Shown here piece by piece: positions 1,523 to 60,636 of a stretch of 64,000 nucleotides of DNA (the stretch's first letter is position 1; every line of letters begins with the position of its first letter). The translations under genes and the position numbers were made by a program. The stretch is from Oceanispirochaeta sp. GTDB lineage: Bacteria; Spirochaetota; Spirochaetia; DSM-2461. A model generated the notes under the pieces. That model was not told where the DNA came from. It saw only the letters and a list, made by a program, of their open reading frames with translations, and did not search any database. The stretch is taken from the NCBI GenBank assembly GCA_963663385.2, contig CAXXXD010000001.1:384001-448000 (forward strand), given 5' to 3'.

Positions 1523-4500
1523 GTGCATGAAATCAGAAAAGAACAGAAGATCAAGAGAATAAAAAGCTTTGAGAAGTCAATATCCCGTAATATCCTCTCA
1601 TGCGGGATTCCCGTTTCGGCAGAATACAGATTATGCGCTGATCCGGTTCCCTTTGAGGATCGTAAAAAGGGTGTCTTCCGGAAAATTGAACAGGGCGAAA
1701 TATGGGGAAAAACCTGGGAGAGCGGCTGGTTCCGGATCACTGCTGCCATTCCGACCGAGTGGGAAGATGGAAATTTTGCCCTCCATCTCGATTTCAACGG
1801 GGAGGCCCTTGTTTTCGACAGCGAAGGGATCCCCCTTTACGGCCTGACGAACGGTTCGGTATTCGACAGGCATTACAGCAAGGATGTCTACCGGCTGCCG
1901 GCGGCATGCCTGCCCGGCGATACCGTCGAAATATGGGTAGAAACGGCGGCGAATCACCTCTTCGGTGTTGACAGGGACGAGGATATGTCCAGTGTCACGG
2001 ACAGACGGGAGGGAAAGCATACGGGGCGGGTCAATCATATGGAGATTGTTCAATTCGACGAAACCCTCTGGCACCTCTGGCTCGATGTTCAGGTGCTTGC
2101 CGATCTCATTGACTACCTGCCGGAAAACAAACCCAGAAGAGAGAAGATCATTCACACCCTATGCCGGATGATGGATCTCTACGGCGACGATCCCGCCCGC
2201 AGCGGCGAGTGCCGGGAACTACTCAAGCCTCTGTGGACCGATGCCAATGCCTCGGATCTGAATGTTACGGGTATCGGCCATGCCCATATCGATACGGGTT
2301 GGCTCTGGCCTGTCAGGGAAACGGTTCGAAAATGCGCCAGGACTTTCGCCAGCCAGGTACATCTTCTGGAGCAATACCCCGAATACGTCTTCGGCGCTTC
2401 CCAGCCTCAGCACTATCAGTTCGTCAAAGACAATTACCCCGGCCTGTACGAAAAGATAAAGACGCTCGTAGCCAGCGGGCGATGGGAAATTCAGGGCGGG
2501 ATGTGGGTCGAGGCGGACTGCAATATCATCAGCGGGGAATCAATGGTCCGTCAGTTTCTTCTGGGGAAAAACTTCTTTAAGGATGAATTCGGAGTCGATG
2601 TCACAAATTTATGGCTTCCCGATGTGTTCGGTTATTCCTCCGCCCTGCCTCAGATTCTCAGGAAATCCGGTGTCGATTTTTTCATGACCCAGAAAATTTC
2701 CTGGAATCAGTTCAATAAATTCCCTTTTCATCTGTTCAACTGGAAGGGTATTGACGGCACGGAAGTGGTAACCCACTTTCTCCCCGAAAACGATTACAAC
2801 GCCAAGGTAAATCCCTCGGCTCTCGGGCGGGCCCAGGATCGCTTCAACGAAAACCATATCTGCGATGAATTTGTTTCGCTCTTCGGCATCGGCAACGGAG
2901 GCGGGGGGCCCAAAGAGGAATTCGTCGAACGGGGACTGCGCCTGCGGAATCTTGAGGGCTCTCCCAAATGGAAATTCGGCAAAGCAGGTGAGGCTTTTGA
3001 TCGAATGAAGGCTCTGTCTCCCCAGCTGGCTACATGGTCCGGCGAACTCTATCTGGAACTTCACAGAGGCACTCTGACCAGCCAGGCTCTTGTAAAAAAA
3101 TACAACAGAATGCTTGAAAACAAACTGAGGGCTGTGGAATACCTCTGGTCCGCTTTGCCTCCGGAAGAATACCCATCGGAAGAGCTGGACAGGATCTGGA
3201 AAAATCTGCTTATGAATCAGTTTCACGACATCATTCCCGGTTCCAGTATCAGGCTGGTATACGAGAGGGCCCACAGAGAGTATGAAACCATGCTCGGCGA
3301 AGCCGATGCCCTTCTGTCCCGTGCCGCCGACGCACTGTTCGAAAAAGAGGAAAACAGCCTTGTAATAGTCAATGTTCTGTCGAGCGAATACGGGCTCCCC
3401 ATACCTCTTCCCGCCTGCTGGAAAGGCTGCACCGTCCGTAATGAGCGGGGAGAGGAGATTCCCGTTCAGCAGGAAGAAGCGTGCTCCTATATCCTGAAGC
3501 CTGTCGAGCCGAACGGCTCGCTCTGCCTTATCAAGGGGGAGGAAATCTCAGTTGCTCCCGGTCTGACAGAAGGGCTTGTACTGGAGAATGATCTGATCCG
3601 GTATGAGCTGGACGAAACGGGCCGGGTGCTGCGCGCCTACGACAAAGACGCGGATTTTGAAATTATGAAAGAACCCGGCAATATACTGTCCCTCTATGTG
3701 GACCGTCCCCTCAAATGGGATGCCTGGGATGTGGACATCGATTATGAAAACATGCCTGTCGGAACAGTTGATCCGGTAAAGGTAACGCCTCTGACCGCAG
3801 GGCCGGTGCGAAAGGGGATTCGGTTTGAAACAAGGATAGGCCAGTCCTCCATTTGCCAGGATGTTTTTCTTGCCTCCAACTCCAAAAGAATCGATTTTAT
3901 AACGACGGTCGACTGGAAGGAAGATCACAGGATGCTCAGAACCGCATTCCCCGTTAATGTCTTCTCCGATGAAGCCAGTTTCGACATCCAGTACGGGTAT
4001 GTCAAACGGCCGACCCACAGGAATACCAGCTGGGACATGGCCAGATTCGAGGTGGCGGCCCACAAATACGCCGATCTTTCGGACAGCGGATACGGAGCGG
4101 CCCTTCTGAACGACTGCAAGTACGGGCACAAGATTCACGGAAATACGCTGGATCTGAATCTGCTTCGTTCTCCCGCCGATCCCGATCCCGAAGCGGACAG
4201 GCACGTTCATACATTTACCTACAGTTTCCTTCCTCACAGGGGGACACTCGTTGATTCATCAGTTATGAGCGAGGCGGCTTCCCTGAACAACCGGGTTCAG
4301 GTATATGACGGCTTCAGGACAGGATCCTTCAGATCTCCCTGCCGGGTCATCGGTTCCGGCGTCTCTCTGGAAGCGGTCAAGAAAGGAGAAAAAGAGGATT
4401 GCCTCATACTCCGTCTTGTCGAAACGGAGGGCCGGAGGAACCGGGTCAAACTGGATTTCGGCGGACGTGAGGTTTTGCTTGCGGAAACCGATCTTATGGA

Positions 4501-45296: not shown

Positions 45297-45896
45297 TTAT
45301 TCATCTGTAGAAAAAGTCATTCTGCCCTTAAGAGCCCTGGATATACTTAGTTGATCAGCATATTCCATATCACCTCCTACAGGAAGTCCCGAAGCAATTC
45401 TGGTGGTAATGATTTTTTTATCCTTAATGAGATGACGGATATAGAGAGCCGTAGAATCTCCTTCCAACGTCGGATTTGTCGCCAATATAAGCTCTTTAAC
45501 TCCAGAGGTATCAATTCTTTCGATAAGCTTATCAAAGCCCAGCTCTCCCGGTCCAATACCATCAAGGGGCGATAGAACGCCGTGAAGCACATGATAATAT
45601 CCCTTATACTCTCCTGTGCTTTCTATCATCTTAACATCCTGAGATTCTTCAACAACACAAAGAAAAGAACGATCCCTGTCAGTTGCAGAACAGATTTCAC
45701 ATATCTCCTCTTCCGTAAAATTTCCGCAGATACGGCATTTATGGATACGTTCCTGTAACTCACTGATTGACTGACCAAGTTTACGATTAAAATCCTCATC
45801 TCCTTTCAGAAGAGAGTATGCCATTCTTGAAGCACTTTTTTTACCAACCCCCGGAAGACGGGACAGAAGGGTAATAAGATTATCAAGGGTATTCAT
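45297..45896 (-). CDS. recR: Recombination protein RecR
   Basis: LPGVGKKSA, C4 zinc finger, ILATNPTLEGDSTA. Confidence 0.97.
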   Translation of the reverse strand: MNTLDNLITLLSRLPGVGKKSASRMAYSLLKGDEDFNRKLGQSISELQERIHKCRICGNFTEEEICEICSATDRDRSFLCVVEESQDVKMIESTGEYKGYYHVLHGVLSPLDGIGPGELGFDKLIERIDTSGVKELILATNPTLEGDSTALYIRHLIKDKKIITTRIASGLPVGGDMEYADQLSISRALKGRMTFSTDE

Positions 45897-46216
45897 TAAA
45901 AGCCCGGAAAACCGGGAGGAACAGGAATACCGGTCATACTGGTCATTTCATCCCTTATTTTATCTTTAATATTCGAATACGCTGCTGTACAGGCTGAAAC
46001 AATAAGTTCCTCAAGCATCTTTACATCTCTTGGATCAACAGCAATAGGATCAATTGTAACATTCAATATTTCCATTTGGCCATTCATCTTTACTTTGACC
46101 AGTTCTCCACCGGAACTGCCTTCTGCAGAGATGCCCTTTAGCTTCTCCTGCATATCACCCATATTCTTCTGCATTTCCTGAAGGTTCTTCATCATATCCA
46201 TAGGGTTAAAATCCAT
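45896..46216 (-). CDS. ybaB: Nucleoid-associated protein YbaB/EbfC
   Basis: EGSSGGELVKV..NG, D..MLEELI; located between dnaX and recR. Confidence 0.95.
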   Translation of the reverse strand: MDFNPMDMMKNLQEMQKNMGDMQEKLKGISAEGSSGGELVKVKMNGQMEILNVTIDPIAVDPRDVKMLEELIVSACTAAYSNIKDKIRDEMTSMTGIPVPPGFPGF

Positions 46217-46228
46217 GGGAAATCTCCT

Positions 46229-46717
46229 TTAAATAATAGTACCTCTGAAAATAGAACGAACAAGTTCCACCTGCTCCTCTACTGTTTCATCCTGTACAAT
46301 CTGTTCTCTTTTGATTTTAGTGGAAAACAGAATATTCCATCCCAGTTTTCCCTGAATTATCTTCTGGATAGTTTTAAATTCTTTTTCGACAAGTGTACTG
46401 GCAAAAGGGCTGTTAAAAGTGAGAAGGACTTTATCTCCCTCCCTCTCCCAGATTTCCGCCTTATCCAGACCGGCAGCAATAGACATGCTGTCCGAACGGA
46501 CTGCCTTCAGAATCTTATCCTTGAAGTCCTTTATATTTAACTCCGGAATTTGTTCAGATTCAGATTTCGCAGTTTTTTCAGCAGGTTGAGGTAATTCTAT
46601 GCTCTGTTTTTCTTCCTGAACAACAGATGCAATTGGCGGTTTTGATTCTTTCTGCTGTATTTTTCTGTCAAAAGCATCGGAGAGAACCGATTCAACCTGT
46701 TTTACTTTTTTTTTTTT
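46229..46717 (-). CDS. dnaX: C-terminal (tau-specific) part of dnaX, in the -1 frame
   Basis: Frame open from the A12 run (KKKKVKQVESVLSDAF...PELNIKDFKDKILKAVRSDSMSIAAGL...VRSIFRGTII), 73 codons before the first ATG; resembles a DnaX C-terminus. Confidence 0.75.
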   Translation of the reverse strand, partial: KKKKVKQVESVLSDAFDRKIQQKESKPPIASVVQEEKQSIELPQPAEKTAKSESEQIPELNIKDFKDKILKAVRSDSMSIAAGLDKAEIWEREGDKVLLTFNSPFASTLVEKEFKTIQKIIQGKLGWNILFSTKIKREQIVQDETVEEQVELVRSIFRGTII

Positions 46718-47898
46718 GGTTCCCCGGAAGGAACAGTTTGGCTGAACGAAGCGGATTGCCCCAGTTGTTCTTTCATCCGGGTCAGTTCACTCATAATCTG
46801 TTTTGAATCAATATGGTATCGAATGGTGGATAATCGGCTTAAAAGCAGCTCCAGTTCAAAACGGGGATTGATGGAATAACGAATTTCACGGAACAGTTCC
46901 AGAACTTCTTCCAATGCCCATTCAATTTGTCCGGCATTCAAATTTTCCAGAACAACCGTAGAAAAACGATCCGGTGTATAGCCGAGGAGAGATTCTTTCT
47001 TTATCCCGTGAAAAATAAAGAGGATATTCCGAAGATATTCCGCAAGATCAGTAATAAACTGCTCTATGGAAACACCGCTTGCAATAACTTCATCAAAAGA
47101 TTCCAGAGCCTGTTCGGTTTTCTCTTCCACCAGAAGCGACATCAGATCATTCAACTGGTCCAATCCGATTAATCCCAGTTTCTCCCGTATTTTATCCAGA
47201 GTAACAAACCCGTCTGAAAAAGAAATAATCTGATCAAACAGTGTATAGGCATCTCTCACGGAACCGGTAGATTCACGTGCTACCCAATAGAGGGCATCAT
47301 CCTCATACTGAATTTCCAGTTCATTACAGACCGTTTCAAGAAGCCTTTTAATTTCTGCAATATCAATCAGCCTGAAATTAAACTGCTGACAGCGGGATCG
47401 AATGGTGGCCGGAACTTTATGTATTTCGGTTGTTGCAAAAATAAAAATAATATAGGGCGGCGGCTCTTCTATGGTTTTCAGGAGGGCATTGAAGGCACTG
47501 TTCGAGAGCATATGCACTTCATCTATAATATATATTTTATATTTCGAGCTATTAGGACTGAACAGTACTTCATCCTTTATTTCCCGGATATCATTTACAC
47601 CAGTATTGGATGCCCCGTCGATTTCAATAACATCCAGAGAATTTCCTCTGGCAATCTCCTGACAGTTGGGACAAACACCGCATGGAGTAATACTGGGACC
47701 TTCCACACAATTGAGAGAACGGGCAAGGATGCGGGCGGATGAAGTTTTTCCTACTCCCCTGGGACCGGAAAACAGATAGGCATGAGCAATTCTGCCGTTT
47801 TCAATAGAGTTTTTCAGGGTTGCGACCACAAAATCCTGACCGGACAATTCGGTCAATGACTGAGGTCTTTTGCGAGATGCTGTTACTTCAAAATCCAT
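46702..47898 (-). CDS. dnaX: DNA polymerase III subunit gamma/tau (0-frame product, 398 aa)
   Basis: HAYLFSGPRGVGKTS, EIDGASN, IIDEVHML, TIRSRCQ; ends at CCA AAA AAA AAA AAG TAA. Confidence 0.97.
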   Translation of the reverse strand: MDFEVTASRKRPQSLTELSGQDFVVATLKNSIENGRIAHAYLFSGPRGVGKTSSARILARSLNCVEGPSITPCGVCPNCQEIARGNSLDVIEIDGASNTGVNDIREIKDEVLFSPNSSKYKIYIIDEVHMLSNSAFNALLKTIEEPPPYIIFIFATTEIHKVPATIRSRCQQFNFRLIDIAEIKRLLETVCNELEIQYEDDALYWVARESTGSVRDAYTLFDQIISFSDGFVTLDKIREKLGLIGLDQLNDLMSLLVEEKTEQALESFDEVIASGVSIEQFITDLAEYLRNILFIFHGIKKESLLGYTPDRFSTVVLENLNAGQIEWALEEVLELFREIRYSINPRFELELLLSRLSTIRYHIDSKQIMSELTRMKEQLGQSASFSQTVPSGEPKKKK

Positions 47899-47970
47899 AG
47901 AAATACAGTATACAGGAAAGGGGTTTACTCTTCAAGATTGGCTTATAAATGAAAATCCCCTCAGCTCCTC

Positions 47971-48062
47971 CCAAGTAATCCATGACACATCAAACAATCG
48001 CTTACGGCTGCTATCTTCCGATCCTGACCGGGTTGGGCGACGTTTAATTGCATGGAACCTGA
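47971..48062 (-). ncRNA. ffs: Signal recognition particle RNA (small bacterial type)
   Basis: CGGTCAGGATC-GGAA-GATAGCAGCCG helix-8 motif inside a long hairpin; upstream of dnaX. Ends approximate. Confidence 0.88.
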
Positions 48063-48085
48063 AAATCAACACTGAAGGGAAAAAG

Positions 48086-48170
48086 CGGAGAAGGGGGGAT
48101 TCGAACCCCCGGTACCTTGCGGTACATACGCTTTCCAAGCGCACACCTTCGGCCACTCGGTCACCTCTCC
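48086..48170 (-). tRNA. tRNA-Ser (GGA)
   Basis: GGAGAGG acceptor, TGCGC-TTGGAAA-GCGTA anticodon arm, long variable arm, GGTTCGAATCC. Confidence 0.95.
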
Positions 48171-48227
48171 AAATTACTTACTCTGTTAATTAACCGGAAC
48201 CAGTTCCGATTATTCCATATAAATGGA

Positions 48228-48301
48228 TATGCCCAAGAGGATTCGAACCTCTGACCCTCAGTTCCGCAAACTGATGCTCTATCCATCTGAGCTATGGGCA
48301 C
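48228..48301 (-). tRNA. tRNA-Arg (GCG)
   Basis: GTGCCCA/TGGGCAT acceptor, TCAGT-TTGCGGA-ACTGA anticodon arm, GGTTCGAATCC. Confidence 0.93.
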
Positions 48302-48306
48302 AGAAA

Positions 48307-48393
48307 CGGAGAGGGAGGGATTTGAACCCTCGGTACGGTTACCCGTACAACACCTTAGCAGGGTGCCACCTTCGGCCACTCGGTCACCTCTCC
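48307..48393 (-). tRNA. tRNA-Ser (GCT)
   Basis: GCACC-CTGCTAA-GGTGT anticodon arm, long variable arm, GGTTCAAATCC. Confidence 0.95.
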
Positions 48394-48437
48394 AGTTTAA
48401 GTTCAGTCTCTTCGAAATTCCGAAAAAACGGAACATA

Positions 48438-48522
48438 CGGAGAGGGTGGGATTCGAACCCACGGTAGGTCTCCCTACGCTGGTTTTCAAGACCAGATCCT
48501 TCGACCGCTCGGACACCTCTCC
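48438..48522 (-). tRNA. tRNA-Ser (TGA)
   Basis: CTGGT-CTTGAAA-ACCAG anticodon arm, long variable arm, GGTTCGAATCC. Confidence 0.95.
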
Positions 48523-59010: not shown

Positions 59011-59248
59011 TGTTGATAATTTGTGGATAAATCGAATTAATCAATTGTACTACAGGAAATACAAAGGCTATAATTTAGGAATAACTTATTTTGTTTTCAT
59101 CCAGATTTGTGGATAACAATAACATCTACATACAAGATAAGTATTTAACTTGTTAATAAATCTAATAATGAATGTTTCATGTTTTTTTTTATTATCAGGC
59201 CCATTATCATATATACTAATTAAGCATCCCTTTGATTAATGTGGATAA
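59011..59248 (-). promoter_or_regulatory. DnaA-box cluster upstream of dnaA
   Basis: TGTGGATAA at 59022, 59108 and 59240; TGTTGATAA at 59011. Confidence 0.85.
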
Positions 59249-59274: not shown

Positions 59275-60636
59275 ATGAGCGAATACGATTACAGTATTTT
59301 CTGGGAAGAAACAATTAAACAACTCAGGGAGGAAAATGAAATTTCCGACCAGGAATTTAATATGTATTTTCAGAAAATCCATTATGTAGAATCTTCGCAG
59401 GATACAATAGCTCTGAGTCTGCCTTCCCTTTTTATCCAATCCCAGATAAAACAAAGATACATTAGTACACTGGAAAGCAAACTCCTGGAACTTTCCGGAA
59501 TGGAACTTTCCCTTGATTTTATTATAGAAAACAAACTCATAGAGAGCGAAAAGTCATCTCAGCAGAAAGTTGAAAAATCAGCTTCTTCTGAAGAGTCACC
59601 TATTCAACCTCATCCTCAGTTAAGGAATGATTACAGCTTTAAGACATTTGTCGTTGGAAATAATAACTCCTTTGCTGCTAATGCATCCAAGGCAATAGCA
59701 GAAAATCCCGGGTCAAAATATAATCCTTGCCTTATTTATGGTGGTGTAGGCCTCGGTAAAACACACCTTATGCAGTCAATTGGAAATTATATCCATTATA
59801 ACAACCCTGATATGAAAGTTGTTTATATTCCAGCCGAAACATTTATTAATGATTTTATTGAGTCTATTAATACAAAGAAGCAAACAAGCTTCAAAAATAA
59901 ATATAGAAATGTAGATGTTCTTTTAATAGATGATATTCATGATCTACAGGATAAAAAAGGTACTCAGGAAGAACTGTTTCATACTTTTAATGCACTTTAT
60001 GATGCCAACAAACAGATGGTTTTTACCTGTGACCGGCCTCCTTCAGAGCTTAAAAACTTTGCAGACCGTCTTAAAAACCGTTTTGTCAGGGGCTTAAATG
60101 TAGATCTTCATCCACCAAACTATGAAACAAGATATGCTATTCTCAGAAAAAAACTGGAAGATAAAAATGTTGTTATCTCTGATAATATCCTTGAACTGAT
60201 CAGCCAGAATATAAAAACCAACATAAGAGACCTGGAAGCTGCTCTGACCAGTATCGTAGCTTATGCAGAGCTTGTTCAAAAAGAGATAACTCCCGAAATA
60301 GCAAAACAGCAACTAAAGCAGTTTTTCTCTTCTCCCATTCAATCAAATATAACAATTGATAAAATTCAGAAACTTGTTTCCGAGTATTTTAATGTGACTC
60401 TCAGTGATATGAAAGGAAAAAAAAGAACCAAGCAGATTACATTTCCAAGACAGATCGCCATGTATATCATCCGTGAGATCACAGATTACTCAACTACCGA
60501 GATTGGTTTGGAATTTGGAGGAAGAGACCACACAACTGTAATGCACTCCTGCCAGAGAATAGAAGACAGGATGAAAACCGATTCAACCATAGAACCAACC
60601 ATTCAGGAGTTGATTCGTTCTATTAAAGAAACCTGA
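59275..60636 (+). CDS. dnaA: Chromosomal replication initiator DnaA
   Basis: YGGVGLGKTHL, LIDDI, QEELFHTFN, GGRDHTTV. Confidence 0.98.
   Translation: MSEYDYSIFWEETIKQLREENEISDQEFNMYFQKIHYVESSQDTIALSLPSLFIQSQIKQRYISTLESKLLELSGMELSLDFIIENKLIESEKSSQQKVEKSASSEESPIQPHPQLRNDYSFKTFVVGNNNSFAANASKAIAENPGSKYNPCLIYGGVGLGKTHLMQSIGNYIHYNNPDMKVVYIPAETFINDFIESINTKKQTSFKNKYRNVDVLLIDDIHDLQDKKGTQEELFHTFNALYDANKQMVFTCDRPPSELKNFADRLKNRFVRGLNVDLHPPNYETRYAILRKKLEDKNVVISDNILELISQNIKTNIRDLEAALTSIVAYAELVQKEITPEIAKQQLKQFFSSPIQSNITIDKIQKLVSEYFNVTLSDMKGKKRTKQITFPRQIAMYIIREITDYSTTEIGLEFGGRDHTTVMHSCQRIEDRMKTDSTIEPTIQELIRSIKET

Follow-up and report, generated by a model that had tools for sequence, protein, structure and literature searches.

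The C-terminal region of tau, the longer product of dnaX, binds the polymerase and the helicase in the bacteria in which it has been studied, and it is essential where tested. In Escherichia coli, a shift on the heptamer A_AAA_AAG leads to the shorter product, gamma, and depends on a strong stem-loop starting about 6 nt downstream of the heptamer and on an internal Shine-Dalgarno (SD) element about 10 nt upstream of it. Thermus thermophilus relies on polymerase slippage on a run of A residues, which gives mixed mRNAs (Larsen et al., 2000, as described in PMC1088944 and PMC5009743), the transcripts gaining one or more extra As in diminishing proportion (Baranov, 2005, PMC1088944; Atkins et al., 2016, PMC5009743). 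Antonov et al. (2013, NAR 41:6514, PMC3711429) presented as new a “reversed” layout, in which dnaX is divided into two open reading frames (ORFs) and tau needs recoding, and Atkins et al. (2016, PMC5009743) restate it. The set of Antonov et al. (2013) comprises 17 genes from 12 genera, twelve of them with a poly-A tract (nine with A10 and three from Chlorobi, namely Chloroherpeton with A9 and Chlorobium with A8 and A7), and transcriptional realignment was inferred for the poly-A genes. Here we describe a dnaX gene of this layout in a 64,000-nt stretch of Oceanispirochaeta sp. (assembly GCA_963663385.2, contig CAXXXD010000001.1, positions 384,001 to 448,000; hereafter “the window”). Judged from the sequence and its relatives, the long tau-like product of this gene would need recoding at a tract of twelve As, and the tract appears to be a genuine recoding site, and an inherited one, in a member of the Spirochaetia resembling Oceanispirochaeta.

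The dnaX gene lies on the minus strand, and its 0 frame ends with the codons GAA CCA AAA AAA AAA AAG TAA, while the −1 frame remains open beyond the run (coordinates in Table 1). The fusion of the two parts would amount to 398 + 158 = 556 aa with a computed mass of 62.9 kDa, and the identical protein would result from either one A added to the mRNA or a −1 shift on A_AAA_AAG. The extension is not expressible on its own from the junction because the −1 frame offers no ATG, GTG or TTG before 46486. Both frames other than that of tau end at once or within four codons of the run. The original prediction, which placed the end of the 0 frame at A12-G-TAA after 398 aa, read the −1 frame as open to 46229 in a fusion of about 556 aa, and recognized A_AAA_AAG at the end of the run in 0-frame phase, is correct in each of these points and in all of its coordinates. 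A12 is the sole A/T run of at least 10 in the window, in which the next longest is one A9 (the tally is eight runs of 8, one of 9, and one of 12 at 41.9% G+C), and runs of at least 12 are expected only 0.03 (independent bases) to 0.12 (first-order Markov) times. The tract sits at the exact end of DnaX domain III, the known location of dnaX recoding sites, and its length exceeds the 9–10 bp RNA:DNA hybrid of RNA polymerase.

Compared with the described systems, the locus resembles the two-ORF genes of Antonov et al. (2013) most closely. It consists of two adjacent ORFs with a −1 offset and a poly-A junction at the end of domain III, the 0-frame stop follows the tract directly (A12-G-TAA), and, as in the published genes, a −1 change relative to the DNA is needed for tau. 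It differs in the length of the tract and in belonging to a spirochaete clade; the genome table of Antonov et al. (2013) lists Spirochaetes with counts of 6 and 10, and the genera with two-ORF genes are given there in an image (Figure S3) from which the presence of spirochaetes is not readable. Changes of frame among close relatives, as described below, were not encountered in that account as far as it was accessible to us. The resemblance to T. thermophilus lies in the A run of at least nine at the junction of domains III and IV and in the close stops in the non-tau frames, whereas the roles of the frames are exchanged: the templated A9 frame of Thermus encodes tau and slippage gives gamma, whereas gamma is what the templated A12 frame encodes here, and tau must come from slippage. 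The heptamer of E. coli dnaX is identical and occupies the same place in the protein, and its two products are those predicted here, but the shift leads to gamma in E. coli and would lead to tau in the window.

The 398-aa product is readily recognized as DnaX by its matches to PF13177 (DNA_pol3_delta2, E 1e-47), PF22608 (DnaX lid), and PF12169 (gamma domain III), and by scores of 442 bits against TIGR02397 (cut-off 250) and 649 bits against NF005173 (cut-off 623). Its translation holds GPRGVGKT, four Cys residues in NCVEGPSITPCGVCPNC, and RSRCQ, which we take to be the Walker A motif (GxxGxGKT), a zinc module, and the SRC motif, respectively. For comparison, the best 120 of 8000 protein clusters scored with this product were taken as relatives. 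In a 6-sequence alignment, the −1 frame product matches the C-terminal third of in-frame relatives along its whole length, with identities of 53% to P0009, 38–43% to P0010, P0013, and P0014, and 30% to P0018, and its terminal EQVELV..F.G motif is invariant in this alignment. One of these relatives, P0014, carries the NCBI name DNA polymerase III subunit gamma/tau. A tblastn search of the window with the in-frame P0009 places residues 1–382 in one frame (87% identity) and residues 384–551 in the −1 frame (50%). More distant comparisons of the C-terminal part give little: an actinobacterial gamma/tau model, NF005846, matches weakly (E 4.7e-5, positions 506–619 of 628), and a PDB sequence search returned nothing related, the best match being a cysteine proteinase at E 0.042. 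The last 106 aa were modelled with AlphaFold2 from an alignment of these residues; the model is of moderate confidence (pLDDT 72.8), and its Foldseek matches to the PDB are all weak, none reaching E ≤ 0.001; they include the E. coli tau C-terminal chains 5fku_E at rank 10 (E 0.031, TMq 0.47) and 2aya at rank 26 (E 0.061, TMq 0.32), as well as DnaA domain I with TMq of 0.49–0.54.

The gene could in principle be decaying or devoted to gamma, having ceased to express its C-terminal part, and another locus of the genome (only 64 kb of which were seen) would then supply tau. The Pfam search, in which no family matched the −1 frame product, would fit such a gene, but 158 open codons in the −1 frame would not, and neither would a C-terminal part that is still 53% identical to an in-frame relative (against 87% for the N-terminus) and that ends in an invariant motif. 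Searches with the C-terminal 159 aa further identified a few separately called fragments (P0122 and P0123, of “near” lengths, and P0124, a “shorter” one), and P0124 represents a C-terminal ORF in another assembly with 94% identity to that of the window. Moreover, there is no second dnaX within the 64-kb window, and the C-terminus of tau is essential where tested. Loss of tau from this gene is thus highly improbable.

The same interruption recurs among the relatives, whose short or long state was read from predicted proteins. The cluster headed by the window protein contains 3 sequences from 2 contigs, and 20 of the 120 clusters are short (393–425 aa) and 100 are long (509–678 aa). The short clusters, at 97% to 62% identity, derive from a variety of contigs and sources, and all but one of them (19/20, the exception being P0026) end 0–4 residues past a KK, KKK, or KKKK run aligned with the KKKK of the window. 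In-frame relatives have KKK at the same aligned spot, followed by sequence that matches the −1 frame of the window. KKK is found 18–33 residues past the end of domain III in 20 of the 100 long clusters, and the junction lysine run occurs in 39 clusters altogether, with 19 of the 39 out of frame. The residue after KKK varies among the relatives (K, S, I, F, N, A, or L), so it is the lysine run and not the E. coli heptamer that is conserved. A scan of genome contigs with the generic motif YIIDEVHM matched at least 594 stretches, the best locus being 64% identical, and none of the relatives at 72–97% identity was among the matches listed. Another 19 long clusters have a separate lysine run later on, where the C-terminal domain begins, and this run has no bearing on the junction. 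Such a later run, conserved as (R/G/L/M/I)KKK(K)L(T/A)L, lies 44–61 residues past domain III at the beginning of the C-terminal domain in many other Spirochaetia (P0020, P0024, P0025, P0028, P0036, P0047, P0058, P0076, P0092, P0095, P0096, P0107, and P0120), where the window has RSDSMSIAAG.

This recurrence bears on the possibility of an error in homopolymer length during sequencing or assembly, which the original prediction had named as a finding that would overturn it. Reading the codons confirms that A13 or A10 would be in frame, and the true gene would then be of the ordinary Thermus type, in frame for tau; 12-base homopolymers are error-prone on several platforms, and some close relatives (P0009, P0010, P0013–15, and P0018) are indeed in frame. 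On the other hand, the interruption is present in 11 of 17 clusters of the clade that contains the window and in 9 more distant clusters, its occurrence is clustered on the tree (see below), and the sequences past the run differ among the short forms, each of which nevertheless reaches a stop within 0–4 codons. An error shared in this manner is hardly credible. The conserved interruption that the original prediction proposed to look for in related spirochaetes is therefore seen at the level of predicted proteins, where its position is maintained, and the DnaX matches, the homology of the −1 frame, and the recurrence together support the earlier proposal that default decoding gives a gamma-like product and that a tau-like product needs a −1 shift or an extra A.

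For a maximum-likelihood tree, the 17 closest of the 120 clusters were combined with 8 more chosen as outgroup, 25 in all. Calculated from N-terminal columns with the trait columns excluded, the tree places the window in a clade of 17 clusters (support 99/98), 11 of which are short and 6 long. The frame state changes at least 4 times on this tree. The in-frame P0009 is nested among seven short forms (branch support 100/97 and 97/92), and the short P0012 is the sister of the in-frame trio P0013–15. That the in-frame state arose only once is rejected by the approximately unbiased (AU) test, in which the constrained tree is worse by a log-likelihood difference of 95.5 (p-AU 3e-70), for a grouping of the six in-frame rows that was named after the tree had been seen. 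The state is at the same time not scattered at random, as 7 of the 8 clusters in the subclade of the window are short and all 3 of another subclade are long, and a quicker tree of 53 clusters, which kept some C-terminal columns, gives 9 changes and a degree of clustering equalled by none of 500 label shuffles. Since the state clusters on the trees yet changes repeatedly, it appears from these predicted proteins to be heritable but labile. Where slippage lets either genotype yield both products, repeated flips of dnaX frame are to be expected (Atkins et al., 2016, PMC5009743).

Flips of this kind might also reflect a phase switch in the DNA itself, in which replication slippage alters the length of the tract and the assembly caught one of several subpopulations in and out of frame. 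Long homopolymers do mutate fast, as such a switch would require. Because tau is indispensable to each cell, however, cells with an out-of-frame allele should die unless recoding takes place, and yet this allele is the one fixed as the consensus in the majority of the clusters of the clade. We regard a switch of this kind as very unlikely.

The two remaining routes to tau, realignment of the ribosome or of the RNA polymerase, could both act at this site, as originally predicted. For the ribosome, tRNA-Lys would move from AAA-AAG to AAA-AAA on the in-phase A_AAA_AAG, assisted by slow termination at TAA and perhaps by pairing of the GGGGA with 16S rRNA, and the extra As would be incidental. The heptamer is the most shift-prone known in E. 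coli, and the named candidates for frameshifting by the ribosome include reversed dnaX genes (Atkins et al., 2016, PMC5009743). The stop follows the heptamer directly, and dnaX upstream of the run uses AAA 14 times and AAG twice. GGGGA lies 9 nt upstream of the heptamer, near the E. coli spacing of about 10 nt, but its duplex with an anti-SD motif reaches −5.7 kcal/mol, a value equalled by 22% of random 25-nt windows, compared with −8.7 kcal/mol for the ribosome-binding site (RBS) of the following gene, ybaB. Folding found no stable stem-loop 5–9 nt 3′ of the heptamer, the sole stem being one of 5 bp at 13 nt, whose fold is equalled by 19% of 33-nt windows, and the 65 nt downstream of the heptamer contain no significant structure (z = 0.18; 106 of 200 shuffles fold equally well). 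The site thus lacks the stem-loop of E. coli dnaX, and its SD-like element does not rise above background. In addition, conservation among relatives does not extend to the terminal AAG codon, and A12 is five bases longer than the heptamer needs. No lysine tRNA gene was found in the window. Taken together, ribosomal frameshifting is a less likely main source of tau, if by some way the most serious competitor.

The hairpin on the 5′ side of the run is a different case, as its fold is equalled by only 2.5% of 9140 same-strand 22-nt windows and is therefore mildly unusual. The residues that it encodes, TVPSGEP, are not conserved in relatives, even at 88–90% overall identity, and for this reason the hairpin is considered a possible local enhancer of polymerase slippage and nothing more. 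In a Roseiflexus insertion sequence, slippage is stimulated by a nascent stem-loop at the equivalent place (Penno et al., 2015, described in Atkins et al., 2016, PMC5009743). The two hairpins and the GGGGA noted in the original prediction thus all exist, whereas an E. coli-style stimulatory role for the GGGGA and the 3′ hairpin finds no statistical support. A longer fold of 111 nt (46745–46691, minus strand) pairs an upstream UUCAGCC with a downstream GGUUGAA and puts A12 in an internal loop, and overall this fold is no better than those of shuffled sequences (z = 0.72).

By analogy with the described systems, slippage of RNA polymerase on A12 is probably the main route to tau. Standard transcription and translation would give the 398-aa gamma-like clamp-loader subunit, ending at the TAA after the run. 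As the A12/T12 tract would fill the whole RNA:DNA hybrid, the nascent RNA could realign and the polymerase could add one non-templated A, and the resulting A13 mRNA, read normally, would encode the 556-aa tau-like subunit with its C-terminal region. A12 and A15 mRNAs would give gamma, and A11 or A14 mRNAs would give a second short form with a 4-residue tail. A ribosomal −1 shift beside the stop would produce the same tau protein and may add to the yield. We favor slippage because the tract is longer than the 9–10 bp hybrid and a single added A suffices exactly for tau, because both non-tau frames stop at once or within four codons, as in Thermus, and because the downstream structure is not significant and the SD-like pairing is at background. 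The conservation of the lysine run rather than of A_AAA_AAG argues in the same direction, and the repeated flips fit a site where both genotypes yield both products. A/T runs of 9 slip efficiently in vivo (Atkins et al., 2016, PMC5009743), and the transcriptional realignment inferred by Antonov et al. (2013) for A10 two-ORF dnaX genes likewise favors slippage.

Several considerations weigh against this account. The mechanism is drawn by analogy and the ratio of the products is inferred, and the in-phase A_AAA_AAG with its adjacent stop is a strong −1 context in E. coli, so that ribosomal shifting could dominate (Atkins et al., 2016, PMC5009743). Borrelia burgdorferi, also a spirochaete, tolerates long A/T runs, perhaps by suppressing slippage (Baranov, 2005, PMC1088944), and the window, at 41.9% GC, has too few long A/T runs to judge such suppression either way. 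As for the relatives, their lysine runs and frame states were read from predicted proteins, and errors of assembly or gene calling in these would inflate the flip count; the choice of the AU-test grouping after inspection of the tree belongs here as well.

Tentatively, the poly-A tract may also be an evolutionary toggle, given that an out-of-frame state is found in 19 of the 39 clusters with the junction lysine run and that at least 4 flips occurred among 17 close lineages. Were slippage near one half, either genotype would supply both subunits, and the length of the tract would act as a heritable dial of the tau:gamma ratio instead of an on/off defect; the 5′ hairpin could then be a lineage-specific booster of slippage in the nascent RNA, of the kind in the Roseiflexus insertion sequence. 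This idea is possible rather than probable.

Outside the close relatives, 80 dnaX loci were fetched from other lineages, and 9 of them have an in-frame A9–A11 at residues 376–423 with close stops in the other frames. These belong to Leptospira (L010), Fibrobacteria (L023), Bacteroidota (L040, L051, L073, and L079), Ignavibacteriota (L059), and Planctomycetota (L065 and L068). As such loci occur in several phyla, poly-A at this junction is a recurrent solution, with the difference that all nine are in frame for tau and the window is the out-of-frame variant. The Leptospira biflexa metagenome-assembled genome (MAG) among them (L010) has two in-frame A9 runs (3673–3681 and 3768–3776), about 30 codons apart and near the junction of domains III and IV. 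One A added to the second run, GAA AAA AAA AGT AAA, creates AAG TAA, a mirror image of the site in the window. In the Archangium and Chloroflexia MAGs (L062 and L056), the frame matching dnaX stops after about 396 and 412 aa, respectively, and another frame is open for 267 and 113 codons, without a poly-A of at least 7 near the stop. These two loci may be another kind of split or frameshifted dnaX, or assembly errors.

The gene order around the site is tRNAs, ffs, dnaX, ybaB, and recR (Table 1). Four tRNA genes (Ser-GGA, Arg-GCG, Ser-GCT, and Ser-TGA) and the signal recognition particle (SRP) RNA are located upstream of dnaX on the same strand, in window positions 47966–48522. The ybaB and recR ORFs share base 45896 (45894–45898), and this one-base overlap of stop and start suggests translational coupling of the two genes. 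Elsewhere in the window, an intergenic A9 on the minus strand (59182–59190) is located in an AT-rich stretch about 85 nt upstream of a plus-strand ORF (59275–60636).

Table 1. Features of the dnaX region, in window coordinates.
Feature	Position	Strand	Description
recR	45297..45896	-	downstream of ybaB
ybaB/ebfC	45896..46216	-	downstream of dnaX; strong RBS
−1 frame extension	46229..46705	-	158 codons plus stop (TAA at 46231-46229); Q/E/K/P-rich linker and conserved C-terminal domain of tau
3′ hairpin ATCGG/CCGAT	46676..46691	-	5 bp; begins 13 nt 3′ of heptamer; within background
+1 frame stop TGA	46692..46694	-	four codons past the A run
0-frame stop TAA	46702..46704	-	directly 3′ of heptamer; ends gamma
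dnaX 0-frame ORF	46702..47898	-	398 aa, 45.0 kDa; start ATG at 47898, TAA at 46704-46702; predicted gamma-like product of standard decoding, AAA+ domains I-III
A_AAA_AAG heptamer	46705..46711	-	in phase with 0 frame; candidate −1 ribosomal shift site
A12 homopolymer	46706..46717	-	putative slip site; exactly 12 A, with C (46718) on the 5′ side and G (46705) on the 3′ side
5′ hairpin	46719..46734	-	ViennaRNA, 6 bp, GUUCCU/UCCG/GGGAAC, −6.3 kcal/mol; one base 5′ of the run
SD-like GGGGA	46725-46721	-	in 3′ arm of 5′ hairpin; 9 nt upstream of heptamer
Last −1 frame stop upstream of run	46787..46789	-	limits two-frame overlap to about 24 codons
SRP RNA (ffs)	47966..48064	-	just upstream of dnaX; Rfam RF00169, 76 bits

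The original expectation that any novelty would lie at the level of the lineage stands, as the inverted layout is already published (PMC3711429; PMC5009743), and the known picture of dnaX recoding is unchanged by our findings. The titles and abstracts listed by the literature searches, a coverage that leaves out most subscription journals, contained no description of a dnaX frameshift in a spirochaete, and we did not find the spirochaete lineage or the A12 length described before. The locus adds a well-supported spirochaete example to the small published set of dnaX genes whose essential tau depends on recoding, and its A12 is the longest tract that we encountered for this layout. Gene callers report the 398-aa product alone, as in 20 of the 120 closest clusters, or may flag a pseudogene, and tau is consequently missing from the annotation of these genomes. 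The frame flips among close relatives provide a natural comparison set for the slippage efficiency that an essential out-of-frame gene requires, and this set could also address whether the length of the tract tunes the tau:gamma ratio.

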